NCBI GenBank assembly: GCA_973895155.1
Contig: OZ316895.1
Location: 3,769,659 to 3,833,658 of the forward strand
Length of the DNA stretch: 64,000 nt
Source of the DNA: Marsupella aquatica
Lineage: Eukaryota > Plantae > Marchantiophyta
Direction of reading: 5' to 3'
The notes under the pieces are model-generated. The model was not told the origin of the DNA. It did no database searches and saw only the letters and a list, made by a program, of their open reading frames with translations. Made by a program: the position numbers and the translations under genes. Shown piece after piece: positions 627 to 64,000 of this stretch (position 1 is its first letter; each line of letters starts with the position of its first letter).

Positions 627-806
627 AGAACAGTAAATGTGTTTTGGGGGATATCCAAAGTTTGGCCATCCAATGATATCCTTCATCTACTGTAGTTTTT
701 GTGTATTAATTTGTGCTCAATAGAACAGTAAATGTGTTTGGGGGGATATCCAAAGTTTGGCCATCCAATGATATCCTTTCATCTAGTTTTTGTGTATTAA
801 TTTGTG
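627..806. repeat. ~95-bp tandem duplication
   Basis: agaacagtaaatgtgttt...ggatatccaaagtttggccatccaatgatatcc...gtattaatttgtg occurs twice. Confidence 0.9.
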
Positions 807-15756: not shown

Positions 15757-16150
15757 TTTCCACAGCCATGGCCCATGGAAAGCAAAGTAAGTACAGCAAC
15801 AAATTAACTTGTAACAAGCAAGATTGTCCCAGCAAATTCTGTTTATTTATCATATCTCGCTAGGCTTGGCTCATCTGCCAGTCCAGCTAATTGCTCACCA
15901 GATTCCACAGCCATGGAAAGCAAGAGAAGTACAGCAAGACATTAGCTTGTAAGCAAGAATGTTCTAGAAAATTTTGTTTACTTGTCATATTTCTCTACCT
16001 TGGACTCATCTGTCAGTCCAGCTATTGCTTACCATATTCCACAGCCATGGATAGCAGAGTAAGTCCAGCACTACAATTAACTTGTAAGCAAGACTTTTCC
16101 AGCAAATCATGTATATCATCTATCGCTAGCCTTGGGCTCATGTATCCAAT
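15757..16150. repeat. ~135-bp tandem repeat, 3 copies, upstream of HD-ZIP IV
   Basis: ttccacagccatgg...cttgtaa(.)gcaaga...ctcat recurs at ~15758, ~15903 and ~16037. Confidence 0.85.
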
Positions 16151-31768: not shown

Positions 31769-32495
31769 CCCGGTTTGAAGTGACAGGGCGACGGGCAATT
31801 TGCCGACTTGCCCGGCACGTAAACTCGGCATTTGCCGGACCAAAATGCCCCTATTTGACGGATATTCGCACTTATTCCCCGGCCCGGCCCGAACTCTTTC
31901 CGGCCAAAACCCGGCCTCCTCCCGGACCCTGCCTGTCTTCCTCACCTGGACCCGGCCCGGCCCGGCCCCAGACCCGGCGCCTATGCTCCCGGCCTCCTCC
32001 CCTCCTCCCCGCTGGCCCTGCCCTGCCCGGCCTCCTCCCCTTCCTCCCTGCCGTCAGTCCCTCCTCCCCTCCTCCTCCTGAACCCCTCCTCCCCTCGCGC
32101 ACTCCCCTCCCCTCCTCCCTCCTCCTCCTCGCGAACCTCGCTTCCCTCCTCCCCACCTCCTCCTCCCGAACCCCTCCTTCCCTCCTCCCTCCTCCCCTCC
32201 TCACTAAATCCCCCTCCTGGGCCTCCTGAACTACCCCTCCTCCTTGCCGGCCCTGCCTACGGCCCAGCCCACCCCCGCCCGACCCGGTCCTATGTGGTGG
32301 GCCGGGGCCGGGAGTGTGTAAAGAGGGGAGACCGGGGGATGGGGCCGGGGGACGGGGGTGAAGTGTCAAACTCGGGCCGGGGCCGGGGGATGGGGCCGGG
32401 GGATGGGGCCGGGGCCGGGACCGGGATGGTTTGGGTGCCAACTTGCCGGTTGATGGCCTCTAAAGGCTCTATTTGCCGGGCAAGTCCAAACCGGG
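31769..32495. mobile_element. Non-autonomous TIR DNA transposon (727 bp), 9-bp TIR CCCGGTTTG, 8-bp TSD TTGGGGGA
   Basis: cccggtttg at 31769-31777 and caaaccggg at 32487-32495; identical ttggggga at 31761-31768 and 32496-32503. Subterminal GACTTGCCCGGCA occurs near both ends in inverted orientation. The interior is GC-rich with no credible ORF. Confidence 0.85.
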
Positions 32496-43765: not shown

Positions 43766-44476
43766 TTTTGTCACGTGAATATGTTGTGGTCGGGGAGGAT
43801 AATTGTGAGGGTGTAGGGACATGAGATAGCCATCATTGCGTCACAGAGTCCAAACATGACAGAAGGGAATATTTTTTGTTTCAATTTTTTCCTCTTGTCA
43901 TTTAAGTTTTAAGGAAATAAATATTTTCTTTATGTTTTCTTCAAATTGATTTTCAAACTGCCACTAGCCATATAAAAGGGGGAAGTGTCCAAGAATTCTC
44001 CCTTTTTCACATTAGGGCATGTCAAAGAACTCCCATAAGCAAATTCTTATGGCCTTGGGTTTCTGGACATATCATCCCTTATGGGGTTTGAGTTTTTGGA
44101 CTTATCATCCTGAATGGGTTATGTATTTTGGTAGCCCATAACTACTTTGTCCTGGCCATAAAAACACTTAATGTCAGTATCAGCCCTGTTTTGACACTCC
44201 CTATTCCACCCTTTTGTCTCTGCTACACCATTTCAAGGAAAGGGTACTATTTATGGTCAAACCTATTAGTCATGGCTAGTGTTAGATTTAAGAGAAGTAG
44301 AGAACTATGTGAACATGTGTTAGCTTTAGTGCCACTGGGGTTTGTTCTCCACATACTCTAGGTCCATGACTCCAAAGGACATATCATCAGCAAGATTAAT
44401 CCAAATCATTCAAATCATGCTCTTGGGCAGGTCAGAAAAGCTGGCTGCTGGGTTAGGTATGCCTGTTCAATGGGCA

Positions 44477-45125
44477 GGGTTACAACTGCAGCATTGTTTC
44501 GCTTTCTGTTTTATTTATAGGATAAGGACGGTTTCGCTTTCTGTTTTATTTATAGGATAAGGACGGTTTGGTCTGGGTTACTTTACTGGTCTGTAACCCT
44601 CTGATCAGAAAATGAAGAAATGCTGACCAGCAGCGGCCAGGGTTACAACTGCAGGATTGTTTCGCTTTCTGTTTTATTTATAGGATAAGGACGGTTTGGT
44701 CTGGGGTTACTTTGGTCTGGGGTTACTTGTCTGGGGTTACTCGTCTGTCTGGGGTTACTTTGGGTTGGGGTTACTTTGGTCTGGGGTTACTTTACTGGAC
44801 TGAAACCCTCTGATCAGAAAATGAAGAAATGCTGACCAGCAGCGGCCAGGGTTACAACTGCAGGATTGTTTCGCTTTCTGTTTTATTTATAGGATAAGGA
44901 CGGTTTGGTCTGGGGTTACTTTGGTCTGGGGTTACTTGTCTGGGGTTACTCGTCTGTCTGGGGTTACTTTGGGTTGGGGTTACTTTGGTCTGGGGTTACT
45001 TTACTGGACTGAAACCCTCTGATCAGAAAATGAAGAAATGCTGACCAGCAGCGGCCAGGAAGGTTGTCTGTAACACTTTGTTCAGAATGTGAAGAAATGC
45101 TGACCACCAGCAGCCAGGAAGGTTT
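44477..45125. repeat. Nested tandem array: ~208-bp near-identical units containing (ggtctggggttacttt)n
   Basis: ctctgatcagaaaatgaagaaatgctgaccagcagcggccagg at ~44600, 44808 and 45016, with internal 16-bp repeats. Confidence 0.95.
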
Positions 45126-45525
45126 TCTGGACTTTGTGGGAACAGATTTCAGACTAGAACCCCTGCCCAAAGAGTCATTATCATACCTGCCTGGAAAAAA
45201 GATTAACGTGTAAGACTTTCTGGGCACCAAGTAGAAAAGTCTGCACACACTTTCTGGGCACCTAGTAGAAAAGTTTACACACGGGTAACCGTTCTGCCTG
45301 ACAGGAATTCCAGGGTAATTCGAGGAGAGGACGAGGACGTCCACAGCACCTTGAAGAAGAGATTAATCGAGCCACGGGCAGGAACAAGATCAATCTGAAG
45401 ATAACCAGTTGCATATTATCCTGGACGCTAAAATGACCATCGGAAACAAAGTACTTGCTGTGCCAAACCTTTGCAACTGTCGGAGAGACAGCTAATCCTC
45501 GAAGAAAATATTTAGAGAGCTAAGC

Positions 45526-45707
45526 AGCATCCAGACCAATTCTTGGGCTGCCATGCTTTACTCTCATTCATACCAGAAGCACTTTACATTTATTCCACTA
45601 GAAAATGAGTAGACACAGCATCCAGACCAATTCTTGGGCTGCCATGCTTTACTCGGGTTCATACCAGAAGCACTTTACATTTATTCCACTAGAAAATGAG
45701 TAGACAC
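45526..45707. repeat. 91-bp tandem duplication
   Basis: cagcatccagaccaattcttgggctgccatgc...aaaatgagtagacac occurs twice. Confidence 0.95.
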
Positions 45708-46648
45708 CAAAACACCAGACCCACTTCGGCTGTTCTCCAATGTGTCACATTGGAGGTCGAGCAAGTCCTACGTTGCACACTAAATTTGTCTTACGATGTT
45801 ACAATTCTTGGGCGGAAGAGTATGTATATGAGGGTTGCTCCAAAGCACTACTGTCAATCATCCTATGTTCAAGCGGCAAGCAAAACCGAAGACGAAAAAC
45901 TGAAGGGCGACAATTGTCAGTCAGAATGTAGAGAATCAGATAGGTACTTTTGGTAGTTCTCATTTCGAGACACAAGTACTGAAATTAAGTTAGTAATCTT
46001 CTATGCTACAGGAGCTTGGACAGTATCTGCCTTCGAGCAGTGAAGGGTTGGTTTACTGGTAGACACTAAACTTTTTCGGGTGGCTGTGTCATGCTAGTCT
46101 AGGACATAAAAACTACCCAAAACTACAAGCTTGGAACCGTACCTTTGATCTCGTAATCCTCCAATCCCGTCAAGTTCGAGATACGCTACGACTAAAACTG
46201 CCAAGTTGTTCACAGAAATAGCTGGTTAAGTGAAACTGATAAAGCCTAGAAAACCTGGAATGTACTCAGGCACATCTCACCTTTCCTTCCACTTTACGGA
46301 AGAGCTCAGGCACACGCATCCACCACTAGGATCTCAGATAAACGAAGATTTGCTAACTTTGGATGTCTCCGTTATGTCTGGGTGTGCTCGAGCTTCTGCT
46401 TTGAAATTGGATTCAGAAACACTCTGCCACCTCCTGCCTCTGGCCAGCCCTTGCAACTTTATCCAGTAAATGCTTGACAGCAATAAGTGCGAGAAGCACA
46501 AAGGACACAAGCAAAAAACAACAAAAATGGGCGAGATGCCCAAAAGTGAATGGAAGCATGGCCTTCATATTGGACATCTCATTAATGACACATGATCGAA
46601 GTAATTGACAGGAGAACCGTTTTTTTTTCTTAAGATGGTTCAATTTGA

Positions 46649-49529
46649 TCAGTCGAAACTCTGGATTTTCAAGGACGTCCGTTTGAACTTGAGAGGAGTG
46701 GTGGAAATATTCATGTGCTGTCGAGTATAAAATTCTGAAAAGTCTAATCTAAATGAAAGGAATTTCAAGTCTACGTGCTGTTGTGCAGGAAGCTGGGCAA
46801 TGAACCCCTCTAGAAGAGATGAGTACTCAAAAGCTACGTCGTCCATCTCCTCTCCAATCCCTGTCAAGAAGTCTCCCGATGGGGATGTGGACGATGAATT
46901 CCTCACATGAGATCTTGCTAAAGACAGCTCCTTCTTGACCCTATGTCTGGCAATACTTTGGCTTCTGCAGAGGCACGTTGCACTGATTTTAGAAATATAT
47001 CAAAACACATATGGTGCTCAATCTTCAATTATGTTAATGAACATGACGAGCTCATGAATCTCAAAAGCGAATGTACTTAAAGGAGGTGGTGATTTTGGAT
47101 TACCTGGACTCCACTTCTCGTGCGTTCTCGAAAAGGCGGTCAGCAAGTCCCCTGAACCGGAGAATCAGATCGAACAGCGTGAACAGTGTTTTGCATAGCA
47201 GCTGAGATCGCTCACCAAGAAGACCTTTCTCTAAGATTGAGCCAAGGTACTTGTCATGGGCAGTGATCAAGTCATCAAGGTCGTGGGCCTCCTCCATTTC
47301 CTCACAAAAATTTGCCCAAGAAAATTCAAGAACCTCAAACATGATGTAGTATTGTAAATTGGTGACAAAATGATTCATTTCATTTCTAAGTGTTTGGCAT
47401 CGCCTCAGCACCACTGTGAGTGCCGACTTCGCCCGTATATCATCAGTTGCCGTCAGTCGTGCTACAGAGCAATTTGGCTTCATGGTTTGCCATGTCGCAC
47501 TTAGAGCATGTTCTACTCGCTTGAGCCTCCAGAGAAAGTTGAAAATTCTCAGGTATTTCGTCATGACATCCTCTGTGAAAACAGTAGTCAAGGGACCCTG
47601 TGCATGATAATCCAACGAAAACACATCCCATCCTCTGTCCCCGTCGTCGTGGGGCATCATTTTTACTCTTAACTTGTCTAATATGTCACTATCGTCGTAT
47701 TGTGCATTTGAAGCTCTGATGGCACTCTCCAACGTGCCGGAGAGCTTGAATGAGCTAAACGTGTTGGCAGGCATCGATAATTCTGGCCCCACAAGATCCA
47801 TCAAGTACTGGATGAAGTCCCCCTGACCCAAAAGTAAATATCTCTTGATAGCCAGACACTGATCTCGGAATTTGTACCGGTTATACACAATCTCGATGAG
47901 GTGACGATCAATTCTCCGAGCTGCTTCTACTACTAGAGTCTCCAGAGCATCTGTCTCACCGTAGCCAAGACCTCCACCGCCATTGGCAGAAGCTTGACCG
48001 CTTGCCACAGCAGTTGCTGCAGCTTTGGCCCAGTCTTGGTCCTCACAGCAAACCCTTAAAAAATTGATTGACTTCCCAGTTCGTAAAATGCTCTGTGCCA
48101 CGGGTTCTGGTATGAAGGAGGGGAGCATGGACGTCTGCAGCTGGTACCCTTCACGCCAGAGAGCTTCTGATTTGACAGACTGAGCTACTATGAAGAACTC
48201 CCCATGAAGATCATCTACCTCTCCCTCGAGCACCCATCTCCGAACCATCTCAAAAAGTGGGGCACAGACTCTGCGCAACAAGCGCTTCAAGAAGCTCCGG
48301 ATCAAGGGGTCACCATGTTGAGCGTGCATATGAATTGCCCCAGCCATAGCACCCCCTCTCAACGTCTTGCAGTCGTCCACCAGCACAGCCATCAACCGCA
48401 TTCTCATAAGAGGCTCTGCCAGCCAGACTGCCAACCGGCGAAGTGACAGATAGTTTCCCCCATTTCCATACTCCTCATTCGCCATCAAGGGAATTTGGTT
48501 GTGCACTTGTGTCTCCAACACGGCCATCAAGCGGTAGTAATCCCCTAACTCCTCCTGTAGAGCTGCACAGAATGCCTGCCCCACAGTGCCAACTGCTTCC
48601 AGCGGCCCATCCTCCAAACTCTCAGAGATATGATTCCTAACCCGGCGAAAAAGCCACCCAACCTCGCAAAGTCGCCGAACCAGAACCCTCGTTGTTTTCG
48701 CTACTTTGAGAGACTCTTCAATGACAAAGCCGTCCGCCTCTTTGTCAAATTTCACATAGCGTCCATCGATGCCTTGGCAAGCGTAAACCACATCCCGGAC
48801 CAGTGCCCCTTCTGACACTTCCGATTCCAGCTGACAAATCTCCACATATTCTCTGATTGCGAGGGACCTCGCATTCGCAGCATCCTTTGACAGTATGAGC
48901 ACACCACCACCGTGAGCTGCACTGTGGTGGTCCAACCCAGCTGACTGAGGCTTGGCAGGATTCAACAATGTATGATGATGGTGATGCACGGTGCCGTTTC
49001 CGGAGACACGCTGAGGGGATGAGTTTGATCGGAATACACCGTTGGGGAGCTTAGGGTGCTCGAAAGTGTCCGATAGGGTTTGGAGTCCTCCCACCACGCC
49101 AGGGACGGAGAGAGTGGAAGTCAGGCCCACGGCAGAGCCCCTGGTTTGTGACCCTTCTCGTCTCTGGTCCTCTGAGACGGCACGGAGGAGATAGAGCACC
49201 GCCCACCTGTTCTCCACACTACCAGGGCCGGTCTGGGACGCGAAGCGTCTGTGCAGGTCGGCAAATGTGAGCGCATCGGAGGACCTTCCCTCTTGCACCA
49301 GCTTCCGCTTGATAGCCTCTCCCATGGCGACCTCATCGTTGACGAGAGAGGGTGCAATTCGGCTACCGATGATGCGCATTGCGTACTGAACTGCCCTCTC
49401 TGCAACTGCGGAGTTGCCTCCACCATTTTGATGCTGCGGCTGCTTTTCGTTTGAATAGGGCGGCGGAGTGCTGGGCAACACCCTCGCTACCAGCTGCTTC
49501 ACCAGATCCGCAACGACCTCCCCGTCCAT
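46649..49529 (-). CDS. GCP3: Gamma-tubulin complex component 3 (Spc98 family), ~913 aa
   Basis: GRIP1/GRIP2 motifs (LVRDVVYACQGIDGRYVKFD, LCEVGWLF, ILRTGKSINFLR, AIKRYLLLGQGDF, GDRGWDVFSLDY, LKFLSFRLDFSEFY). Two exons, 47104-49529 and 46649-46964, joined by a GT-AG intron; 2742 nt, in frame. Confidence 0.96.
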
Positions 49530-50354
49530 GAGAAACCAATCAATTCCTATCACACTTTCCTCCTCCTTCTTTCATATGACCACCCAATGCCTGTCATCTT
49601 ACTGCTGCGCCATTAGCCCGAATCCATCATTTTTTCTCCAGTCTCCTCAAAACCATCGCCAAAACGCTCTCCTGCATATCCTGGCCCTGGCCTCGTACCT
49701 GCTGCATAGTTCCCGCGTCCATCAATCAGACAGCAGACAAGACGTTCGAAATTGCCAGAACAATGCCATCTCGAACAAGAAGAGGAGAAGAAGAGATGGA
49801 AAGAAGAAGCAAAGCATAAGAAGAAAAACAAGAAGACAATGAGCAAGATGAAGATATAAAAAGAAAGGAGAAGATAAAAGCAGAGCAGACGAGACAAGAA
49901 ACGCACAAAACGCACAAAACGGAATTCGGCACCCAAAACTCAAAACTCTCGCGTGAATGCAAAAATACCTTCAACCTTCCCGACTCCTCGATTCCTTCTT
50001 TGGCCGAGCTGACTATCCCACCCTGCTCAGGCAGCTCCACTCTACTCTCGAAACGCGCGGCACCAGCTCAGAAGTACGATCTGGTCCACCCCCTTCTCAG
50101 TACGTTCAAGACAGAACAACTCCAGCTCCTGATCAACTCTATCTACAGTCAGTCACTCGGAGCAGCACCGCCGTACCAGCATTGTTGTGTTGATCATTCC
50201 CTCGGCCCCCAAGCCTACTCCCAGCGCTAAGACACACATTCTTTCGGCCTAATCGAGTCAAGCCGGTGCTCGTATGACTTCTTCTTCGTATACCTCCTCC
50301 TCCTATCCTGCCTTCTGCGAGCCAACCAACCAACCAACCAAAACCCGATTTGCT

Positions 50355-50370
50355 TGAGAGACTCAGAGAG

Positions 50371-50407
<37 letters not shown>

Positions 50408-50590
50408 GACAAAGTACGAGAGAGAGAGAGAACGAGACAAAGAACGAGAGAGAGAGAGAAAACGGGAGAGAGAAGCGAATTGCTTGCTTGAAGGCGAGAG
50501 AGAGAGAGAGAGAGAGAGAGCAGAATAATTGCTTGATTGAAGGAGAGACCCGAATTGCGAGCGAGAGAGGGAGAGAGGGAGAGAGGCGAG
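50355..50590. repeat. (GA)n/(CT)n microsatellite tract in the GCP3 promoter/5' leader
   Basis: Multiple GA runs ~0.8-1 kb upstream of the GCP3 ATG; typical of plant 5' leaders. Confidence 0.85.
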
Positions 50591-52149
50591 GGCGGGTATT
50601 CAAATTGCCGAACAAGACTCGAAGCGAACGAATCGAAGAAGCTTTCTTCGTGCGTGCGTGCGAGTTTACCACTTTACGGCCTCCAAACGATTGTACCGCC
50701 AAAATGGGACCACTGTTGAGCTTGCTTATTTTCGGACTCCCATGCTCTTAGTATTGCCTATTGAGACTCGTGTAATACGACTAAGGGTCAGGCGGAGACT
50801 CGCTTGACCCACTTTGGTCTTGGCAATGCTTGCATGGACCGTTTAATGTATATTTTAATGAGTCGGCAGGGGGTTACTAGGGTGTAACCCTGTGACCAGA
50901 AAGTAAAGAATAGTTGGTTGGTGGATTACAGAAAGCTTTCTTGAGCGTTTGGGTTCAAACTAAAACCCCAACCCATACCATCTCTATGGTATGCAAGTGA
51001 GGTATGGTAAAGAGTTATTGATCATGAGTTTCTGGGTAACAAATTATGGAAATAGCAAGGACCTCCACAAATTATTACACACCAATAACCTATATTTTGC
51101 ATATATGAGCAAGTTTTGGACTTGTTTGTTTGGTATTTCACTTCTAGTAGTCATGGGTTTAGCATTTAATGTTGTCCTGTAGCTTAGTATGGCTTGGGGA
51201 TTTTTGACTCTCATCACTATGACCCTGCATTAAGAATGTTCAAAAAAGCCCAGGTGCCACCGCTTAGCTTGTTCTCACATTCCGGACAGAGGGTTACAGC
51301 CTAGTAAGCCCTGCTTCATCTCACATTCTGGGACACAGGGTTACAAGCCTAGTAAGCCCCCACCCCCCGGTTTGAACTTGTTGGACAAATTGGGTCATTG
51401 GCGACCGACATCCAACACATGTCGTCCCGATCGATCCCGGCCGGGTAACCGTGGTCGGGTCGGGTGAGAGTTGGGTCGGTCAGAGGGAGTCGACGGGAGT
51501 TGGGGGTGGGCGGTGCAGGCGGTCGGGAGGCAGTAGGTCGGTCAGGGGTTCGGGAGTCCATGGTCGGTCGGGGGGGTCAGTCGGGGGCGGGTATTCGGGT
51601 TTAGGGGGAGGTCGGGTGAGAGTCGGGGGCGGGGGTCAGAGTGAAAGGTCGGGTGGAGGTCGGGGTGAAAGGTCGGGAGCCGGGGGCGGGTCGGGTGGGA
51701 GTCGGTCGGGTGGGGGTCGGGCAGGGGTTGGTTGGGTGGGGGTCGGCGGGAGTCGGTCGGGGGAGGGATCGGGAGTAGATTTAGGGTTCGCGAGGAAAGT
51801 CGGGCGATTAGGGTTTGTGCCGGCCGGGAGGCAGTCGGGAGGCCGAAGCGGGGGGAGAGGGGATAAAAGGGGAAGAGGCCCAACCTCCTCCCTCATTGTG
51901 TTTGTTTTGCAGGAGGAGAGTGGAGAAGGAGGGGAGGAGAAGGAGGGGAGGAGGAGGAGAGGAAGACATAAGGTAAGGTTTTGTTTTTAGTTTTATGTTT
52001 GGTTTATTTTTTGTATGTGTTTAGTGTTTTTTTTTGTATGTTGGTGTTATGTTTTGTATTTTGTATTGGTTCACTTGTGTTTCCTTTGTCATTTGTAACT
52101 TTATTTTTAGATAAATGGAGGGATATAAAGAGAATCCTGTACGTGTGTG

Positions 52150-52465
52150 TTTGGCGCTTCGGCTCGACATGTGGTATTTCGTACAGGAGTCTCTAATATC
52201 ACCTTAACAATTTATGATCATTTGTAAATTGAGTGAAACGTTTATGCCGATAGAGAAACCCATGTACGCAGGCTTGGAGTTTCGGCTCAGCATGTGATAT
52301 TTTGCATGGGTGTCACGATTTGCTGAAAATGTTTTCACTCGATCGACAAATGGTTCTTAAATTATAGATATCACCTAGATTGAAGTAAGAATGTTATAAC
52401 CTTGAAAGAAAAGAAAATTGTTGTGCCTATGTTTGGAGCTTTGGCTCGGCATGGGATAATTCACA
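52150..52465 (+). repeat. Three dispersed subterminal copies of TTGGMGYTTYGGCTC..CATG upstream of the kinase
   Basis: Copies at ~52151, ~52273 and ~52433. Confidence 0.7.
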
Positions 52466-52674
52466 ATTGTATTCTCCCTTCTTTTATCGTTGTGACATTC
52501 AAAACATTAATAAGAATGAAATGAAATAAAAGTATAAAATGGGAGAGATAGTGCGTAACAATTCATCTCGATCCGTGAATTTCAGGGTTTCTTTGTCGAT
52601 AGTTTATTGGAAGAATTATTTTGGAGTGGTAAGGTTTTACTCCTTTCACCACGTATCATTCCGGTGAAGCCACA

Positions 52675-54340
52675 ATGGAGTCTCCTTTTCGTGCAGAATA
52701 TAGACAATTGTTGGAAACGATCACGAAAGTTTTGGATGAGGGGGGTGAACCGGATAGGATTGCTCTGGAGTCACTCAAGAATGCACGAAAGACTCTTGAG
52801 TATGCAGTAACTCCAACCAAAGTGATTGGGAAGAGGAAAAAAAGAGGGGGGAATATTGAGGTCAAACATGTTCGATTCAACGTGGTAGTGGCAATATGGA
52901 AAAGAGTACTGTATCGTTACACTCAACCACATCAATATGAGGCGAATGCGTTTGAGATGGAGTTCACCAGGCACGGTCTGAAAGGATACAAGAAGTTTGT
53001 GAACGAGATAACCCGTTGTATGCGTGAAAGTGTGGAGGATGAAGAGAATTTCACAAGAGAACAGATGGAGGCATTTCTAGTTGATTGTGAGAAACCAGCT
53101 GGATTTATTAACAATGTGGCATTGAACTTGGAGATGAATATTTGGGATGTGTTGATGGCCAAATTGAGTCAGGATGATAGTACTTTACTTGGAAACCCTG
53201 GGATGTATAAGCACAAGAGGAGTTTGTTATCAACTTGGAGTAAAGAGTTGGCAATGGCAAAAGCAGAAAGTAATGTCAAATATGCAAACAAAGTGATGCA
53301 GTTTGGGGATGTCAATATCAAAAGCGATTCAAAAGGAACACGTCCATCACGTGTAGTCCTAGAGGTTAGGAGTATTCATTTCCTTAAGCTTGAGCAGGTG
53401 CAAAATGCAAATTCCATCGGGAAAGGTGTTGAAGGAGACGTTTACACTTGTCACGTTTTAGATTGTCCCCTTATTCCAATGAATGTCACACTGGTTGCCA
53501 AAAGATTCAAAAAAGGTGATAGGCAGAAGAGAATAACAGATGCATTACAGGAAATGCTTATGGGAGGATTGAATCACAAGGGAATTGTTGGGGCTTTGGC
53601 AATGACTATTGATGATCCGCCAAGACTTGTTTATGATCACTACAATGGAGGTGATTTGGGAAGCTTCATAGATAAGTGCGGATTATGGTCAAAGAGCAAA
53701 GGGAAATCATAGGGTATCTCCAACATTGATTTCAAGTTTGTTTCTGAGAAGAAAGTTTTTCTAGAGAACCGTTTGGGAATCTCCTTGGCGTTGCTTGAGA
53801 CGCTACAATATTTGCATGACCACGGACGATTCCATTGTGATCTTCACTTTGGAAATATTCTTCTTCATTTCGACTATGAGGAGGATGTAATTATCAGGGT
53901 GTATATATGTTGACTTATGTGATTTTGGCTTGTCCAAACATAAGTCACAGTGCAAATTACCAGAGAATCGAATGTGGTCTACTCTTGCAGATAAATTTGT
54001 AGCCTATCAAAAACAATATCCATAATTGGCTCCTGAGCTTGTTTCACCCACTCCAGTAGAGTATAGCCAAGCTACTGACATATATGCTTTGGGCAACATT
54101 TTTGAGAGTCTATTTTTAGAGAATTGGGATGGAGCGTCCATGAGGACACGGTGGTTGGGTAGGGGTTGGAATGCCTTGGAACATGGTCCTAAATTGGAAG
54201 CTATGGTTCGTGATATGATGGCCACAGATGTTAAGAAAAGGCATGATTGTGCCTTTTGGAGTTTGAACCTTTAAGGATTGTAGACTATTTGCACAAAATA
54301 GTCCTTATCTTAGGGATTAGAGATTACAAGGTTGATCCAA
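52675..54340 (+). pseudogene. Protein kinase pseudogene (TE cargo) with a long uncharacterised N-terminal region
   Basis: IGKGVEGDVY glycine loop, VAKRF, HCDLHFGN, CDFGL, LAPE, DIYALG. In-frame TAG at 53710-53712, frameshift near 53905 (TA-repeat slip) and TAA just before LAPE. Confidence 0.9.
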
Positions 54341-54472
54341 CAATTACCTCATGAAGGCATTAACATTGACATGGTTTATATGAAGTGATATGCTCATATT
54401 GTTGTATATTTTGTTTTGATCAATATTTGAGTTTGTTCTAAATTTGTTTTTACGTTTGTAGATTGTGCAAAC

Positions 54473-55688
54473 ATGCCACGCTGGGATTTGGAATCTGATG
54501 ATGACAAAGATACAAATATCAAACATGATCCTATAATCATGCAAGATGCTCAAGATGCTTACTACAATGATTTTGATGATGATGATGTTCATGGGAACTT
54601 GCTACATCCAATAATTGGGCCGGAAGATGAGTCACAACCCAATGTTTGTAATATTGCTATGGCCACCCAAAACTCCTTGCAAAACATAACAAAGTTGGAG
54701 GATGGTAGTATCGATTTGGAATAGAATATTGTAGCAAAAAATGTCAAACCTCCTCATGATGAGTGGCCCATCAATGCAAAAGAATTGGAGATTCTGATGC
54801 CCAAAGCAGAGTTCCAGAAATTTGCACGAATGCTTTTTGATGATCCGGAAATGTGGGAAACCAGATCTTGGTCATAGGAGAAATTTACTATCTCAAAGAT
54901 AACATATCGAGCGGTTGCCACGCATTGGCAACAAAGATTTTGAGAATATGCTCCAAACAAGGCAAATGGGAAAATTAGATCTATTTATCCTCCATTTATT
55001 CAATGTTTGATTGGAGAGTTCATTCTGAATTGGAAGGTGGATTACCGTTGGAAAAATAATGATGGCAAGGTGACCCATCAGGTGCATAAATCAGTGCATG
55101 CTATTGCAGCAAATAGAGGCAAAAGTGCAAAGAAAGATGTTCCAATCGGTACTTCCAACAAGGGGTGCAAAAGAAAGATGGATGATGCGCAATAGGGCAA
55201 TACACAACAAAAGGAGAAAACAACTGCTATTTCACAATTTTTTGTGAAGCCTGAGGCATCAACCACAACAAGCAATGTGGAGTACGTCTACCAACAAAAG
55301 AAAACCAAACCTTTCAGGCGTTGGGAGTAGAACTCCACATGTAATCAACATCGATACTTTGAATCCGAACAAGGGTTGAATGAGCATGCAACATGTATGC
55401 AAGAGTTTGGGAGCAAAGGTTGGCGATCTCATTGAGAAGAATCTTTCCACAAAATACGTAGTTGAGCTTTGTGAATCTGGCACCATTGAAAGGTACAAGG
55501 CAAAACTACAAGAGGCTGAATTGAAGATAAAGTTGCTAGAAAAGATGCACATGGAATCGGCAAACAATTTTGAGGTGAAGGCTCGGGGGTTTTACTTCCA
55601 CAAAAATGACATATCACGTGCGACAAAGGATAGGGTCATTTTATTGGTTCTAAGGGAAGACTTAAGAATTTTTGTAGAAGAACAATAG
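54473..55688 (+). pseudogene. Decayed uncharacterised TE-cargo gene (acidic N-terminus, predicted helical or coiled-coil C-terminus)
   Basis: Protein-like reading MPRWDLESDDDK...HDEWPINAKELE...GEFILNWKVDYRWK...AKLQEAELKIKLLEK, interrupted by several TAG/TGA stops. No family recognised. Confidence 0.55.
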
Positions 55689-55859
55689 GGTCTTTTAAAT
55701 TCAATTTTGAGACTTGTAAGAACATTAGGGTCTTTTTAATCCAATTTTTAGAATATTCCAAGAATATTCCAACTTTATAGGGGTTAAAAAATAAAATTCT
55801 TACATTTTAGGGGGTCCAAGGCCTAAAAACGTCGCAGGCGATGGGGAGGTTCCCATATA

Positions 55860-56738
55860 GTGAGACCCCCAAGGGTGAAAGAATACAAGGTTCAATTGTT
55901 TGACAAGATGGAAGAAATCAAGAAGATGACTCAACGACTTGCCCAAAGAGAAGTTCAACATAATGAAGTGGCAGAACTTCAGAAGAAGAACAAAGTCATC
56001 AACGATTTTCAAAATGACATTGCATCTAATCAGCTCATCATAACAAATCTGTAGCACGAGATAGATAATTTCAACCATGGTGATTTGGAATGTGAGTCAA
56101 AGAAAGATGGGTCAGAAGATTTTGTTCACATGTAGATCATTTATCCTACAGGATCCAACAACCTTTTTCCGGATGTGGAGGCTAGTGTTGAAGGCATTCA
56201 AAAATATTTTGATAAGTGGAAAAAGGGTGATAATATGGCAGTATTTGTTCGTGAAAAAGATGACAAGTGTACTTGGTGCCTATATCCATGGGGTCCTGAA
56301 TCTTTCTCCATATTGGGAACTTGTGGTCATATATGACATCATGCTTGCTTGTTTAGATGGTTGAAGAAGAGCAGAAAATGTTGGTGTTGCACACCATTTC
56401 ATCAACGCTAATACGAGCAACGAGGATTGTTGAACCAAATGCCATCAATGGAGAGTCAACAAGCCACTGATGAAATGATAGAAGAGGGTGTAGCGATGAC
56501 GCAAATAGATCCCACTCCAATTGAACACTTTACAATCAATGAGTATAATTTGTCAGATGACGAATTTGACAGGTTGCTCCTAAGTGGTCGATTCAATGAA
56601 TGGAAGGAATATGTTGCAGCCAATCAACCATCAGTAGATGAGAAAAATATGCAACGATCTATTCGTCGTTATCGACGACGTCAAGAACGGGCAAAAGTGA
56701 AAGCAGAAGCAGTAGACTTCAACGGCAAAAGGAATTGA
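55860..56738 (+). pseudogene. Coiled-coil plus RING-H2 E3 ligase-like pseudogene segment (TE cargo)
   Basis: From 56268 the frame reads CTWC-LYPWGPESFSILGT-CGHI*HHAC-LFRWLKKSRK-CWCC-TPF, a C3H2C3-like RING with an internal TGA. It continues in frame (through one more stop) into the 56427-56738 ORF. May be downstream exons of the 54473 gene. Confidence 0.75.
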
Positions 56739-57112
56739 ATCCAATAATCTCTACATTTTGATGTACTTGATCCTTAGAGACTTTTCCTATGCTAGCTCTT
56801 GCAAATAGTCTTTGACAATTGTTTTCAACTTTTAATTGTTAAAGAAAAGTTTGGAGTGACATCATATTTCGTTGAGCTTCTGTGATATGTTTGTGTATCT
56901 TCAAGTCTCGCTAAGTGACAATTTTGGGTTCCACTTCAAGAAAATAGCATTTTGTGCAATATAACCATTTGCAAACGTAGCCACAAACTCCATTAGGCAA
57001 TATGTAAAGGTTGTCTTTAAATAGAGGGACATGAAAAGGTGAAGAATCGTGGTATGTTATCATTGCCCTTGGCCAAACAAGTAAACTGGCAAAATTGGGA
57101 GTAGAGAAATTT

Positions 57113-57420
57113 GGGATCCATGTTTGTTGACCATGGATATTCGTTGTTGTCACTTGCTTCGATCTCCATCAACGTGTAGGTCAAATGTTGTGACGCTGGT
57201 GTCTACTTGCACAAATGACTCCAACAGTGAGGTGCATTCCAAGAATGTAACCTTGGATGTACAGTACACTAATTTCTGTACCCCTTTCGGTATTATATGA
57301 CTACAAGGCGGGAGCCATTTGTGTAACAGACACTAGGGTGGCAAAATGTGACATACAACTTGATGGAGATCGAACAAAGTGACGACAACGGACATCCAAG
57401 GCCGACTGACATGGATCTCT
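57113..57420 (+). ncRNA. Long imperfect fold-back hairpin (candidate miRNA/siRNA precursor)
   Basis: Arms of ~110 nt (57113-57222 and 57311-57420) are inverted copies, e.g. ttcgatctccatcaa / ttgatggagatcgaa. Several mismatches become G:U pairs on the + strand. The hairpin is certain; transcription is unproven. Confidence 0.5.
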
Positions 57421-57432
57421 GACGAAAAGTTG

Positions 57433-58826
57433 TTATTCAGGAATTTTAGAGGAACCACTTTGGATTACAACGTATGAAATTACATCATCACAAGTTCTGC
57501 ACGGCGACAATAACAGTATCAGAGGTGGACTACCATCAACGATTATTTCAAGATCGGTGATTGAACGAAGAAGACTGACACCAGAGGAGTTGAGGGATAA
57601 TAAAAGCAATAGGCCTTTCAATTGGTGGAATTTGGAAGCTATGTTGGACCTCCTATCTTGGACTCTTTCAAGGCTTTTGTGAGCGCCAGCAACCTTTGAG
57701 GGGTGGACAAATCGCGGCAATGTGGAGAGGAATTGTAGCCAACCTTGCCAATCCTTCTGGTCTATAGGTCAGTTACCTTGGGCATCATTGCAGAGTAAAC
57801 TCACAGAAATTGTGAGACCTGAGAAATCGCGCTTGCTCTCTTGTTTGTGTCATTTATGTCCGTAATGAAGGATAGACGACCATGAATGGGCGGAATGAGA
57901 ATTGTAAAATAGATAGGATCATGAAGGGTGGAAAATCCTACTTTGCCGCTGAATTGGTGTTTGGCGTTCTTTTGTGACATTTGCAACTTTAAAAACATCT
58001 TTCATATGAAACAAAAATTGCTTATATTAAACAAAAAATGATATAACAATAACAGTGTTCACAATAGTAAGAAACCATGCTAATATAGTAGTAAAAACAT
58101 ATCTCAAGGTTGTGAAAGGAAATTCCTAGTATTGTTGTTACGATTTTGCTGCAAAGCTTGATTCCACTTTTGTTCTGCAGCCCATGCAACTGCATCACGA
58201 TTGCGAGGTTGTTGAAATCCACCACCAATAGGTCTGTTCGATGTATACGGATTTGTTTCACTAGCTCCCCTGTACTCATTAAAGATTATAGCAGCTTGTT
58301 GCCATGGTGCATATGTGTTATCCGTAGACCGACCTTGTACATCATTGTGTTGTGGAACAAACGGTGATCTGCTTTCCTCCCCCAAATCATGCTTTTCTAT
58401 GGTAGTGTGTTGTTGAACAAAATATGATCTGTTTTGGTCAACATCATTGTGGACATTCAATGATGGATAAGCCCAAGTTGACTTTGGCTGGGAAGACATA
58501 TCAAACTCTAAATACAATGATGCATGATCCTCATCTTCAAGTTGAGACTCGTCAATTGTAGGATACATGTCAAAATTTGTGTCATTCTCCCATTCACCTA
58601 CATCACTTACGTCTGTATCCGATGGAATACGCGTCAAAAAATCATTTTCTTTATCCAATGATAATCCTTGCAGTGCTTCACCAGCATCATCAATTGTATC
58701 AAAATCGATGATGTCTTCTTCTCCAACCTCCGCACGTGTTGAATCATAGCCTTCATTGTCAAAGCACTCCATGGATACTGGCCTAACACCATCAATTAAA
58801 GCTCTTCTTTCCTCATAAAACCCCAA
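57433..58826 (-). pseudogene. Uncharacterised acidic/low-complexity protein gene remnant (TE cargo)
   Basis: Open 240-codon D/E-rich frame at 58104-58826, then a probable downstream exon (57433-~57990) with in-frame stops. No family recognised. Confidence 0.45.
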
Positions 58827-59086
58827 TTTAAGGAAAACCGAACTTTGGAAATTCCGAAAATCACTAAATATTATTATTTTAATAAAAAGGGGGCGACATG
58901 ACGCGTGGCTGCACGTGAAACCCTGAAAATGACTGCAATGTCACATTTTAACCAATCCAACTTGACGGGACCAAGAGACATGCTCACGCGAATAATAATA
59001 ATAGAGAAATAAATCTTTGAGATCCTTTATATATGATAACCAGTATATAAGGAGTTTACAAATAGTTTCTAGAACGACAATACAAA

Positions 59087-59815
59087 TTAATCTGATCTCA
59101 TGCCGACTATTATTTTGGAAGCGTCCAAAATTGGGCGTCTGTTAAATTGCTCTACTAGATATCTATCTCCATGCCTCTGAATCACAGGGTCTTCCCATAG
59201 AGTATGATTATAATCATAATCTCTAAAAATAGATTTAACTGACCAATCTGGATAATCTCTTCCATTGGCAATGACAAGCGGCTCACAAGAGTTTGCTAGC
59301 TTGCTAAGATACAGAATCAGCAAGTTAATCAGGAAACTATCGTCGACCGACCCAAAATATTTGGGCGGAAATAATGATCCAACAACAGGATCTAAACAAG
59401 CATGAAATGCATTGGATTTGATAAGCATTATATTTTGCTGCAGATACGCCTTCGTATAAATTCCAACCTTCTCAAAACACTTTAAAAATATCCGCTTATT
59501 TGATGTCACCCAATCGCATAAGTAACAATGAGACTGATCCCAAATATACTTAAATGAGGCCATTTCCATCGGAGTAAAAATAGATGCTAAAATCTGATCT
59601 AAAAGGTTCTTCCCAAGAGAGGACCAGATCCCTACATCGAAATTCTCAAAACAGAATCTCAAGAATTCGTGAAGATGAGGCCTTGGAAAAACGTATATAT
59701 TCCCAATCCGAATTCCAGTTGAGACCGCCATCAGTCGGGAATGCGGTGCAGTGTAACAGAGTAGATGCTCCACATCTAAAACTATGAGCCCATTTTCTCT
59801 GCTGTAATGAATCTC
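59087..59815 (-). CDS. FCP1/NIF (HAD-like CTD phosphatase) homology module 3, catalytically degenerate
   Basis: LIVLDVEHLL...RPHLHEFLRFCFENFDVGIWSS...YIWDQSHC...FLKCFEKV. The usual IDD motif is replaced by IKS. Open frame after a phase-0 acceptor (tttctctatag) at 59815. Confidence 0.75.
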   Translation of the reverse strand, partial: EIHYSRENGLIVLDVEHLLCYTAPHSRLMAVSTGIRIGNIYVFPRPHLHEFLRFCFENFDVGIWSSLGKNLLDQILASIFTPMEMASFKYIWDQSHCYLCDWVTSNKRIFLKCFEKVGIYTKAYLQQNIMLIKSNAFHACLDPVVGSLFPPKYFGSVDDSFLINLLILYLSKLANSCEPLVIANGRDYPDWSVKSIFRDYDYNHTLWEDPVIQRHGDRYLVEQFNRRPILDASKIIVGMRSD

Positions 59816-59901
59816 CTATAGAGAAACACAAGAAGATGCATGAGCCCGTATGGATGTAGTCACGCGAATGGTCGCGTCACATATTACAGAGAAAACATCC
59901 T

Positions 59902-60609
59902 CTACACTCTGGCCATTGATAAGTGACGTCTGTTGAAGTGCTTGATAAGAACTTGATCCGCATGTCTCTGCACGTACAGATGCTCCCATATATCCTCGTT
60001 CAGATCCCAATCTCGATGTAGATTTCTAATCGACCAGATGGGATAATCGAACTTGTTAGCGAACGCAAGACAAAGCCCTGAATTTGATAGCTTTCGTAAA
60101 TATGGAATGAGGTCATCCCTCAAAAAGACATCATCCAACGATCCTTGAAACGACTTAGCGAACAATGATCCGTATACAGCTGTCTAGCATGTATGGGAAG
60201 GACAGGCATTAATCTGGATTATATTATTTGGTCGATAATCTTGAAACATATCACGTAGTCTCTCGATAGATTTGAAGACAACAGTCTTATAATTTTTCTT
60301 CACATAACCAAGATTCCAGCAATGATCCCGTGTGAACACATATATCAGCTGCGACAGGTCGGTGCTCGACAACACTTCTGAAAGTATCTGATAAACCAAT
60401 TTATCATCGAGAATAGACCAGACCATCACATCAAAATGATCATAACAGAATTTTATAAGATCATGAAGATCCGGCCTTGGAACGACACATAGAGATCCGA
60501 TACGAATTCCGGGTGTCGACTTGAGCTCAGGAGTATATTTTGAAACAGAGCACAGGAAGTTTTCCAGTTTTAAAACTAGAAGTTGACGCGACCTGCTCCA
60601 CTTAGACAC
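59902..60609 (-). pseudogene. FCP1/NIF homology module 2, one premature stop
   Basis: LLVLKLENFL...RPDLHDLIKFCYDHFDVMVWS...VFKSIERL...NIIQINA. The TAG at 60184-60186 is in frame with the 59902-60165 ORF. Phase-0 acceptor (tcatttatag) at 60609. Confidence 0.75.
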
Positions 60610-60833
60610 CTATAAATGAACAATTCGATTCTCATATTATGCAATTGCAAACAACCACGCGACCGGGCGCGTCACTCCCAAAAGTTCAATTTCAATCAAT
60701 TTATAAATAATAATTGATAATAAACAATAAACGTTTATTTATTGGACTTATCCCGAGCTTCTATAGCACGGTCTTTTTCGGCAGATAAGTATTTCATAAA
60801 TTCGTCAAACTTTTCTAAATGGTCTTTATTCCC

Positions 60834-61640
60834 CTAATTACGAATGATCACATTTCTCCTCCAAAGATTCGTCTTATCAATATAATCTTTCTCAAGATTT
60901 TCTTGAGAGAACGTTCGAATCCCATATCCACTAAGGAGCTCGCGGAATGTCAACTTGTCAATTGACATGTCGCATAGGTATGGATATAGTTTCTTTCTAA
61001 AAAATAGGTCATCATCGAGCCCAGAATATGCATTGGGATACAGCGATGAATAGAAGTCATTAAGGCTCGTCTTATATGCAGCGTCATCGATAAGAATGAC
61101 ATTCTCGATGTTGTAATCTTTAATATCGGCGGCAATGTCCGAGAGACATTTGACAAATAAGGGGATGTCATTATTATTCTTCCCAATAAGTCGAGTTGAT
61201 TCTTGTCCCCATATAAATTTAATATGTTTCAAAACTTTGGGTTGAAGTATCAGCCTTACACAAGATAGAATATTCCGTTTGAACATGCACGACCAGATTG
61301 CAATGTCGTATAGATCTGCCACCTTCTCAAGAAATTCCATTAAATCAGGCCTTGGATAGATAACCTTGTGCATCTGTCTCACACCCCTTGACCGAATGGG
61401 CATCCCAGGGCTGATCTTCTCTGACCAGATAAGTACCTGATTCAGATAAAAAATTACAAGTCTCTTATGAACCGGTGACTTCTTTGCCGATGGATTAGGC
61501 ACCATCTGTAATTGTGATTTTTGTGCCGCAGGGTTTGGAGAACATACTAGAATGGTCTGTTTGTTTCCCGCCTCCGGATGATCACCGGACTTCCGGATTG
61601 GTGCCTTCGATACTCGATCAGGGGGTTTCGGGATAGGCTT
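60834..61640 (-). CDS. FCP1/NIF homology module 1 (exon spliced in frame to the Ulp1 exon)
   Basis: LVIFYLNQVL...RPDLMEFLEKVADLYDIAIWS...FIWGQE...FVKCL...NVILIDDAAYK. The acceptor tgttttacag at 61640 reads in frame into the 60834-61505 ORF. Confidence 0.8.
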   Translation of the reverse strand, partial: KPIPKPPDRVSKAPIRKSGDHPEAGNKQTILVCSPNPAAQKSQLQMVPNPSAKKSPVHKRLVIFYLNQVLIWSEKISPGMPIRSRGVRQMHKVIYPRPDLMEFLEKVADLYDIAIWSCMFKRNILSCVRLILQPKVLKHIKFIWGQESTRLIGKNNNDIPLFVKCLSDIAADIKDYNIENVILIDDAAYKTSLNDFYSSLYPNAYSGLDDDLFFRKKLYPYLCDMSIDKLTFRELLSGYGIRTFSQENLEKDYIDKTNLWRRNVIIRN

Positions 61641-61726
61641 CTGTAAAACATTAAGAAATAAAAATAAGTTTATAACGTGAACGGTCGCGTGACTACAAAG
61701 AGAGACACTGAAATGAAGTGTATTAC

Positions 61727-62514
61727 CTGTACAAGACGGTTGTTCAGTGCTGGAATTCTGCCGGAAATGTCAATCATAGCAGCACGGATCCCGGTAACTA
61801 GGTTACTTGCGGACATCGGCTTGCGGAAGTCCATGTCAAATAACGACAAGACTATCTCCCTACGGAATTTCTCAATTTGATCCGCGGCAAAATTAATTTT
61901 GTTTCCTTGACACAAGCACTTGGCGTATCTCAAGATAAACACACCACAACTGTGGCCGTCACTCTGGTGAGGAATATCATTCCGATATATCCGTTTCCAA
62001 CCTGAGAGATCCAAGTTGACACTAGTTCTCCAGCCAATTTTGTCGGCGTAGTACTTCCCAACAATATCTAGCACCCCAGGATTTTGTCGATTATGAACTA
62101 GAGAATCTAGGTACTCCAGCCGTTTCTCCTTCGGATACAAGACTACCAATGACCAATGTTCTTTCACATCATTGTGTACTGGAAAGACCAGTTTGTCGTA
62201 ATCACTGATTTTTAGCGGAAACTCCTTTGTCCAAGTTGCTCTCTCCTCGTCAAAAATGGTAGGATCCATGGAGAGAAGCTCAAAATGTGTGTTTGGAAGA
62301 ATTTGACAAGGTCTGACTTTCCAACTCTATCGAGAATCAGTTCGAGAAAACTCAAATAAGCATTAATTATATCATCGGTGAGCAACTCACGCGGTCTCAG
62401 ACACATCATATGTTTCCTCTTGATCGAGTGTTGTAAGAACTTGATCAACAACTCTTCCATATCCTTAGAAGGATCAAGGCATTGATCTATTCGACTAGCC
62501 AAATTTTCAAAAAA
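61727..62514 (-). pseudogene. Ulp1/peptidase C48 SUMO-protease domain exon, one frameshift
   Basis: LRPRELLTDDIINAYL...FF/NTHF...FPVHNDVKEHWSL...YLDSL...PHQSDGHSCGVF: His-Asp-Cys triad and oxyanion Gln intact. Frameshift near 62295. Acceptor at 62514, donor CAG|GTAATA at 61727. Confidence 0.9.
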
Positions 62515-62665
62515 CTGCAAAAAACAGAGATTTCAGTATGCCTTCAAATAACGTACTGAGGTTGTAGCCTAAGGGTTCTACCTCAGAAAACAGAAACAAT
62601 AACAAATCAATAATAAAATAATGACGTCTATAATAGAAACTTTAAGCTTATAGCTTGCAAATGAC

Positions 62666-64000
62666 CTTTGGATTGGGTGGATCCGGCCTTTTCGCAGCTG
62701 ATCTCTTGGGTGCCTCAATCGCAACAACATCCTTCAGCCCTCCTCGAGACCGCAGTGATCGCTCCATCGGACCAGTTTGCAAAGGTTGGAGCGATGAGGC
62801 GGGAAGACCTTCAAATGGTTGTGGCATTTGATTCAAATATTCCACAATCTGGGAATCCGATTCCAAAATATCCGGTGCCACAATTTCTGCGCAAGTGACC
62901 TCTGCAATATATCGGGGTCGAGACCACGAACCCGGTCGCGTCAAGTCAGCTGTTAGTCTCTTAACAACTTGAGCCGAGTCTGGTGCCAAAAACGTTCCCA
63001 GGTCTTGCACTCGATTCTCGGAAAAGCGGACATTATTGATGATTGTCTCCATTCTGGATGTAGTGGCAGTCTTCTCCTCGGTAATCAAAAGACCCTTCGA
63101 ATATTGCAAAGCAAGGACTGCCTGGACTCGGAGCTACTCCGATGAATATTTATTCCAATCATCCAACGAGATCGTACTTAAGGGTGGATCGTTAAATTCA
63201 AACTCCGGACAAAGAAAATAGTCTAATATTTTCTTCTTAACTGCAACTGAGGGTGAAGAAGGCTTCTTCAAATTCAGCCTTATTTTCGGTAGACGTTGTG
63301 CCTCAGAAATAAGCGAAAGATCCTTGGCCCTCTTGGCCTCCTTCCTCGCTGCCTCCAGTCTTCCGGCTTCTTCTCTCTCCAGTCTTGCGAAATCGACCTT
63401 TTCTGCCTCCAACTTCTCCGCCTCCACCCTCTCCGGTCTTGCGGTCTCGTCCGCCATCCTCTCGGCCCGCACCCTCTCAGCCGCCACACTCTCCGCCTTA
63501 TTTTCCTCTGTCACTAAAAGGACTCTTGCAGCCTCCGCTTTCTCAGCCTGGGCTTTCTCAGCCTGGGCTTTCTCAGCCTGGGCTTTCTCAGCCTGGGCTT
63601 TCTCAGCCTTCGCGTTCTCGGCCTGGGCTTTCTCCGCCTGGGCTTTCTCAGCAAGGACTCTCGCAACCTCCGCTTTCTCAGCCTGGGCTTTCTCAGCCTC
63701 CGCGTTCTTTGCCTGGGCTTTCTTTGCCTGGGCTTTCTTAGCCTGGGCTTTCTCAGCCTACGCTTTCTCAGCCTGGGCTTTCTTAGCCTAGGCTTTCTCA
63801 GCAAGGACTCTCGTAGCCTGGGCTTTCTCAACCTGGGCTTTCTCAGCCTCCGCGTTCTCGGCCTGGGCTTTCTCCGCCTGGGCTTTCTCAGCCTGTGCTT
63901 TCTCATCCTGGGCTTTCTCGGCATCCGCTTTCTCAGCCTGGGCTTTCTCAGCCTAGGCTTTCTTAGCCTGGGCTTTCTCAGCCTCGGCTTTCTCCTTCTT
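62666..64000 (-). pseudogene. Upstream exon of the Ulp1-NIF gene: (AEKAQ)n coiled-coil repeat plus linker; truncated by the window end
   Basis: One frame runs from the repeat through 63514-63134 and 63109-62666, with isolated TAG stops (e.g. 63134, ~63789, ~63954). Donor AAG|GTCATT at 62666 is phase-compatible with the Ulp1 acceptor. Confidence 0.7.
63530..64000. repeat. 15-bp coding tandem repeat (ctgggctttctcagc)n encoding AEKAQ on the minus strand
   Basis: About 30 imperfect copies visible directly. Confidence 0.95.

Follow-up and report, generated by a model that had tools for sequence, protein, structure and literature searches.

What begins at position 51366 in a 64,000-nucleotide stretch of Marsupella aquatica DNA (contig OZ316895.1, hereafter the window), and do the genes that run from there to the end of the stretch, encoding a protein kinase, a RING-H2 protein, an Ulp1-type protease and three NIF (C-terminal-domain (CTD)-phosphatase-like) domains, belong to one transposon? 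The position is a real transposon end, and it is followed by unusual and apparently undescribed accessory genes in what is a dead composite copy. On balance, and by no means firmly, we favour a history in which the decayed left part of a multi-copy transposon carrying the kinase and RING-H2 genes is followed by a younger Ulp1-NIF module that was nested or swapped into it. Evidence from outside the window was drawn from contigs of public sequencing runs, coded X1 to X5, and from protein searches. X1 is possibly the source sample, X2 and X4 represent organism B and come from another study, and X5 represents organism C from a third; the four runs that bear on the terminus, from three studies, are not all independent. 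Feature coordinates are collected in Table 1.

Position 51366 is a mobile end, because summed contig depth steps up exactly there and contigs that share the same edge have unrelated flanks. Across contigs on 51290-51470, X1 depth rises about eight-fold, from 20.9 left of 51360 to ~175 from 51367; the single-copy reference in this run is 22.5, measured at the gamma-tubulin complex component gene GCP3, and summed contig depth is not equivalent to copy number. At least seven X1 contigs start at the terminus with unrelated flanks, two of them loose before 51365 and five before 51366, and the agreement of these loose flanks with their consensus is 0.75 (n = 2) and 0.48 (n = 5), respectively. Contigs of X2, X4 and X5 also begin at 51365-51371 with different flanks. 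A sharp terminus common to dispersed copies with unrelated flanks, the mark of a terminal inverted repeat (TIR) transposon, is therefore present. The junction itself is spanned without difference by a 1065-nt X1 contig and by contigs of X2, X3 and X4; its depth in organism B is about half that of a single copy, and no empty site was seen in the contigs, where the other haplotype of organism B does not appear on the flank.

The initial annotation had called this terminus nearly identical to the end of an element in the same window that is flanked by target-site duplications. This holds for the outer 15 nt and not beyond: against the right end of the 727-bp sister element, 14 of 15 positions are identical, then 20 of 26 and 28 of 40, so that the likeness fades from the outside inward. 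Taken alone the 15-mer match is weak: the window holds five matches with at most three mismatches, shuffled sequence holds 1.82 on average, and five are reached in 6 of 100 shuffles. The sister element's TTGGGGGA duplication sits inside a 10-bp tandem unit. By analogy of the termini, the far end of the outer element is predicted to read as an inverted …CAAACCGGG followed by a second CCCCACCC. A third CCCGGTTTG end lies at 36554-36568 on the minus strand (12 of 15 matching); no partner end or duplication was found for it in the window.

Does the mobile end belong to everything that follows it? Both the kinase-RING arm and the Ulp1-NIF block are multi-copy by contig depth and are not single-copy host genes, a finding that would have counted against the initial annotation had it been otherwise. 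That annotation placed all of the cargo in one element. Its left end is indeed mobile, whereas joint carriage is put in doubt by changes in depth, CpG content and an intron-borne motif near 58.8 kb. In X1, summed depth is 87-327 over bins 51820-58803 (nested insert excluded) against 670-1318 over 58804-63450, which is ~4-15 times and 30-59 times the single-copy value. Between the adjacent bins at the boundary it rises from 112 to 993 in X1 and from 605 to 5506 in X3 (9-fold in each), from 469 to 2272 in X4 (5-fold) and from 4008 to 7190 in X2 (under 2-fold). The Ulp1-NIF half is represented in X1 by collapsed contigs at a depth of 460-700, including one with 98% identity to this copy. Among the X1 contigs listed, by contrast, those bearing the terminus have a depth of 10-22 and those bearing the kinase, 87% identical, a depth of 19-20. 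Because deep right-half contigs stand against shallow terminus and kinase contigs, the terminus appears to be missing from the Ulp1-NIF subfamily that is young and amplified in X1. The CpG observed/expected ratio increases from 0.53 on the left to 0.94 on the right, in a window whose background is mostly 0.3-0.7; the change point is at 58601-58894 (support interval 58193-59318), with a likelihood ratio of 29, whereas none of 200 permutations exceeds 13.3. The CACGCG motif, borne mainly by non-coding spacers of the right half, stops at 58902, in the same area as the other two changes. Its six occurrences in the region compare with a shuffle mean of 0.57, none of 500 shuffles reaches six, and it is the top 6-mer there (family-wise ~p < 0.05).

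The alternative is one giant element in which kinase, RING, Ulp1 and NIF genes all lie between a single pair of CCCGGTTTG ends, the Ulp1-NIF block being its core and the left arm changing faster. We regard this as possible and, on balance, doubtful, since the sharp depth steps in X1, X3 and X4 coincide with the CpG change, and no counterpart to the 98%-identical amplified right-half subfamily is listed for the terminus or the kinase in X1. Several observations nevertheless weigh against a composite and for a single element. Here the two halves adjoin each other in a tail-to-tail arrangement, and no internal terminus was found: there is no clear terminal repeat or target duplication at the boundary, and inspection by eye gave no convincing Helitron, CACTA or Kolobok-type end. 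A single CACTA 5-mer occurs at 58862, ~0.5 being expected by chance in 300 bp, and the sequence after it is unlike what we take to be the usual CACTA terminus. In X2 the kinase bins (8,616-16,013) and the Ulp1-NIF bins (6,174-12,535) have similar depths, as expected if the two halves often travel together, and in X4 they agree within about two-fold. A phase-0 acceptor could join NIF3 to the acidic open reading frame (ORF) across the boundary. The termini of subfamilies can diverge below detection, as that of the sister element does after 15-26 nt, so that the eight-fold step at the terminus may undercount the family. Likewise, diverged kinase copies and termini may escape the identity cut-offs: contigs were compared at 85%, and the kinase relatives lie near that value and may be undercounted.

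The favoured composite joins two clusters of genes, which lie where the initial annotation had put them: Pfam recovers the kinase and RING-H2 domains on the plus strand and, converging on them, the Ulp1 domain and three NIF domains behind a coiled coil on the minus strand. What it had not recorded is that all genes of 51366-64000 are broken by stops or frameshifts, except NIF3 and the acidic ORF downstream of it. The kinase gene contains stops at 53710 and 54023 and two frameshifts. It matches PF07714 at E 1e-9 when read through a stop, its GxGxxG, VAK, HCDLHFGN, DFG and APE motifs are still visible, and in three frames it is 68-70% identical to P0176, an intact protein of 550 aa. The searches found only P0001, P0174 and P0176 as relatives, the best matches among solved structures are weak and tyrosine-kinase-like (E 5e-7), and no close named host gene was found in the protein searches. 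Predicted folds were too poor to use, the predicted local distance difference test (pLDDT) score being 39.7 for a kinase homologue and 50.5 for the N-terminal region, and Foldseek on the latter poor fold gave no match at E 0.001. An MLKL/HeLo-like reading of the helical N-terminus was considered, and these folds neither support nor exclude it. Relative to single copy, X2 shows much greater depth than X4 over the kinase (52984-54147) and RING (55894-57057) parts; both runs are labelled organism B, and the difference possibly reflects a sample-specific amplified subfamily.

The RING-H2 domain matches PF13639 at E 2.5e-5, read through a stop, in a gene that has at least ten in-frame stops, a frameshift and a nested insert. 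Contigs in all four of four runs join 55564 to 55874, so that other copies lack this 309-bp insert, whose bin depth of 40,797 in X1 is about 1,800 times the 22.5 of a single copy. No inverted ends were found on the insert, and its true limits may be inside the tabulated interval, because loose ends cluster at 55582-55797. Further along, X2 and X4 contigs end at 57118 and 57127, by the imperfect hairpin. Neither Pfam nor the Atlas gave a match for the acidic ORF, and the three minus-strand frames of 56775-58000 had no Pfam match.

In the right half, the Ulp1 domain matches Peptidase_C48 at E 3.4e-17, and alignment to SENP2 and SENP1 places the His, Asp, oxyanion Gln and Cys residues of the C48 active site. 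It is a SENP-type C48 protease domain, with SUMO or another ubiquitin-like protein as its putative substrate. A 1-nt frameshift near 62286 interrupts it; other copies have one more base at this point. The three NIF domains match Pfam at E 1.3e-13, 7e-7 and 1.1e-9. In addition to the predicted intron between Ulp1 and NIF1, phase-0 acceptors are present at the ends of the spacers that precede NIF2 and NIF3. The donors of these spacers are non-canonical in this copy, so a single polyprotein composed of coiled coil, Ulp1, NIF1, NIF2 and NIF3 is no more than plausible. None of 450 candidates at E 1e-10 was a longer Ulp1 relative, and none of the 29 NIF matches scanned (the best and longest of 150) had a transposase or Ulp1 fusion. 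No loci around relatives were recovered from viral contigs (queries NIF1, P0001, P0017 and the terminus pattern) or from metagenome contigs (queries NIF1 and the kinase alignment).

Could the NIF domains remove phosphate? The initial annotation counted erasers of phosphorylation among the cargo, and this is doubtful, because the DxDxT motif I of active FCP1/SCP phosphatases is absent from all three domains. NIF1 homologues have DxN together with the motif-IV acidic pair DD; this copy has YxN, and motif IV is kept only in NIF1. NIF2 and NIF3, like their closest homologues, have neither DxDxT nor the acidic pair. NIF2 and NIF3 thus look like pseudo-phosphatases, and the NIF domains are probably not ordinary phosphatases. 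A tree was built by a quick method, with Shimodaira-Hasegawa approximate likelihood-ratio test (SH-aLRT) support only and without a labelled viral sequence, from 159 rows: 156 domains from 150 matches and two named Sphagnum proteins, and the three window domains. All three window domains group with 23 other proteins in a clade of 26 rows (support 98) that excludes the Sphagnum host NIFs. Because each type pairs with its own relatives (NIF1 with P0002 and P0005, NIF2 with P0035, NIF3 with P0014), the tree indicates that the triplication is old and has been kept in other organisms. Derivation from a Sphagnum-type host gene was dropped as the tree separates the two, and the protein searches found no close named host gene for the NIFs. 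A profile of the clade matches UBLCP1 at E 5e-15. Its members P0002-P0014, P0016, P0019, P0026, P0028 and P0034-P0036 have a common C-terminal extension; those looked up occur only on short Logan, ENA and JGI contigs, and related elements in many poorly studied plants may be recognisable by this clade.

For NIF1, 78% of the best Atlas cluster is viral, most commonly Nucleocytoviricota (0.96), which raises the prospect that endogenous DNA of nucleocytoplasmic large DNA viruses (NCLDV) lies beside an unrelated transposon end. NCLDV-like regions are known from moss and lycophyte genomes (PMC4083422), and the lack of CpG depletion in the right half would suit such an origin. We think it very improbable. 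The top Atlas row does not discriminate, because the bacterial and streptophyte clusters in rows 2 and 3 score 0.94. A canonical GT-AG phase-0 intron and more intron-like spacers are predicted, and no viral hallmark gene was detected in a six-frame Pfam scan of 52000-63503 read through stops, so that neither the hallmarks nor the intron poverty of viral DNA is seen. The depth of the kinase arm tracks that of the terminus in X1, and, as weak evidence, the viral-contig scans contained no relative. The main text on the moss and lycophyte regions, as far as it was available, does not mention kinase, phosphatase or SUMO (PMC4083422).

Nearly all of the genes here are broken, and capture of host-gene fragments is common in plant TIR elements (PMC13317346). 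A Pack-type origin, a non-autonomous transposon with captured fragments that never served the element, would account for both. Little credence can be given to it, since the protein searches yielded no close named host gene for either the kinase or the NIFs, and full-length open relatives at 46-68% identity indicate long conservation rather than recent capture.

How does the composite compare with known systems? TIR elements move by a DDE transposase that binds their ends and subterminal repeats, and the stagger of its cut equals the length of the duplication. The initial annotation had proposed a search of the interior for a transposase; the six-frame scan contains none, and in particular no KDZ transposase (PF18758), CxC, MuDR or VANC domain. 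Fish Zisupton elements have short TIRs and a SUMO protease that is part of the transposase protein. KDZ elements have 8-bp duplications and a size of ~11 kb (Dileera, PMC12730594; KDZ1, 10.1101/2025.05.19.654958) and multi-exon genes (PMC9297572). The outer element would resemble them in scale, in multi-exon genes and in its duplication, whose length of 8 bp is seen in the sister element and predicted for the large one; no KDZ or CxC domain lies in the scanned region, and kinase, RING and NIF cargo is not mentioned for KDZ in the available parts of these sources. An 8-bp duplication would also fit hAT elements. Their termini begin (C/T)A(A/G), whereas the ends here begin CCCGG. The outer terminus likewise does not fit CACTA ends and 3-bp duplications, although CACTA elements with Peptidase_C48 share the Ulp1 cargo (PMC2528002, PMC12973397).

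Ulp1 is a common cargo of both MULE and CACTA elements (PMC2528002, PMC12973397), occurring in 120 of 1846 MULE and 77 of 775 CACTA clusters of active TIR elements from 1007 plant genomes (PMC12973397, Table S6); that survey's supplementary workbook has no NIF entry, and kinase domains are in at most four clusters per superfamily (PMC12973397). The closest parallel is with KAONASHI/VANDAL elements (VANC/KIU), which also combine an Ulp1 accessory gene, short non-coding motifs and a proposed anti-silencing role (PMC13317346, PMC2528002). Ulp1-bearing VANC proteins of VANDAL hypomethylate copies by way of motifs in non-coding regions (PMC13317346). An Ulp1 accessory gene, as in MULEs, is present here, and its link to the terminus at 51366 is uncertain. 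KAONASHI and VANDAL are non-TIR MULEs of flowering plants, whereas the outer element has short TIRs and an inferred 8-bp duplication, and the sister element has inverted CCCGGTTTG ends. Unlike in KAONASHI/VANDAL, Ulp1 here adjoins NIF domains in a predicted fusion, and the scanned region has no MuDR or VANC domain. The NIF domains share the fold family of UBLCP1, Tim50 and SCP-type HAD phosphatases (Pfam NIF), and differ from them in that DxDxT has become DxN in NIF1-type relatives and is lost in the NIF2 and NIF3 types, and in that three ancient paralogues stand in tandem behind an Ulp1 domain. The initial annotation's remark that this cargo combination is not known from described plant elements is in keeping with the literature: no description of kinase plus RING or of Ulp1 with three NIF domains as transposon cargo was found in a search that extended to sources other than Repbase and most subscription papers.

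On the favoured reading, the outer element would be a cut-and-paste transposon whose DDE-type transposase would be encoded beyond the window. The enzyme would bind the short CCCGGTTTG ends and the G/C-rich subterminal repeats. Insertion would generate 8-bp duplications, and the 727-bp sister element would be mobilised by the same enzyme or a relative of it. The cargo would be the element's own long-kept accessory genes rather than freshly captured host fragments, because the kinase motifs persist in intact relatives (46-68% identity) and there are separate relatives for each NIF type elsewhere. Its most likely job, by analogy, would be self-regulation and relief of silencing: deSUMOylation of chromatin or of transposon proteins by Ulp1, binding of phosphorylated partners by the dead NIF domains, acting as adaptors or decoys, and modification or turnover of host or element proteins by the kinase and RING. 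The CACGCG motifs in introns could mark the element for the Ulp1-NIF protein, as non-coding motifs do for VANDAL and VANC. This analogy would fit the intron motif and the unlost CpG; a young age or foreign origin would explain the CpG equally well. A far-reaching version can be envisaged, in which giant (>12.6 kb) plant transposons, possibly of a KDZ type not yet described in land plants, encode a toolkit of kinase, RING E3 and a polyprotein with a SUMO protease, one atypical and two dead CTD-phosphatase domains, and use it for anti-silencing of their own copies through the CACGCG intron motifs, hence their escape from CpG loss. We judge it unlikely.

Transposons repeatedly carry Ulp1 for reasons that are unexplained, and an Ulp1 domain fused to three ancient NIF domains, together with a dedicated family of intronless kinases, would be new types of accessory gene. 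Should SUMO or phosphorylated polymerase tails prove to be their targets, the proteins would offer a testable handle on silencing resistance in little-studied plant lineages. The finding would be worth less if the two halves were merely nested dead elements.

Table 1. Features of the window, in order of position, with the evidence for each.
Feature	Position	Strand	Evidence or remark
Non-coding 727-bp sister element with inverted CCCGGTTTG termini and 8-bp duplication TTGGGGGA	31769..32495	.	
Predicted 8-bp target-site duplication CCCCACCC	51358..51365	+	Sequence; length inferred from the sister element's duplication
Left terminus, short terminal inverted repeat CCCGGTTTGAACTTG	51366..51380	+	Depth step; contigs with other flanks; 14 of 15 positions shared with the end at 32495
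G-rich subterminal repeats (GGTCGGG, 11 of 13 window copies) and purine tract	51381..51970	+	
Intronless protein-kinase gene with ~220-aa helical N-terminal region, broken	52675..54320	+	Pfam PF07714/PF00069
Gene with acidic region, unknown region, coiled coil and RING-H2 (56268-56390)	54473..56738	+	
Nested 309-bp very high-copy insert splitting the RING gene	55565..55873	.	Contig joins; depth
Imperfect hairpin, 90-nt arms, 79%; possibly a nested fold-back element	57115..57417	.	
Stop-free acidic low-complexity ORF, last exon of an unknown gene	58107..58860	-	In the low-copy, CpG-poor half
Approximate boundary between the two halves	58800..58900	.	Depth step and CpG change
Six CACGCG motifs, five in successive non-coding spacers of the Ulp1-NIF block	58902..62393	.	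6 of 10 window copies
NIF3, FCP1/NIF-like, open in this copy, predicted pseudo-phosphatase	59087..59815	-	54% identical to P0014
NIF2, pseudo-phosphatase-like domain, premature stop at 60186	59902..60609	-	51% identical to P0035
NIF1 exon, proline/lysine-rich linker and NIF domain, premature stop at 60836	60735..61640	-	44% identical to P0002
Predicted 86-nt GT-AG phase-0 intron; its splicing would join Ulp1 to NIF1 in frame	61641..61726	-	
Ulp1/SENP-type (C48) protease domain	61727..62520	-	Pfam; closest solved structures SENP2/SENP1 (E 1e-13)
Upstream exon, linker and 15-nt tandem repeat (AEKAQ-type coiled coil), four in-frame stops	62650..64000	-	Runs off the window end

The wider window is land-plant DNA, because it contains a multi-exon HD-ZIP IV-type gene with START and PDF2_C domains (9760-12301, minus strand) and the GCP3 gene (46600-49571, minus strand), which has ~810 codons in one exon. 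The 5' end of GCP3 is only ~1.8 kb from the transposon terminus. The cargo would point to a seed-free plant, because no named flowering-plant relative of it turned up and Sphagnum is the sole plant named among those NIF relatives that were looked up. An Rfam scan of 44000-64000 returned no matches, and an exact look-up matched none of ten window ORFs, which is uninformative as starts were guessed and the kinase reference lacks its first codon. A dispersed GGGTTAC(A)-rich repeat family occurs at 44470-45120, 50870-51355, 32560 and 33220; both CCCGGTTTG elements lie within or beside these repeats, which may reflect a target preference, and loose contig ends are found at 50870 and 50904, inside such a repeat. 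An array of ~260-bp tandem units occupies 25666-27510; a segment of it is inverted (26945-27030), and a related piece occurs at 37615. Small elements resembling miniature inverted-repeat transposable elements lie at 30009-30374 and 30690-31099, with inverted arms of 44 nt (89%) and 26 nt (88%).

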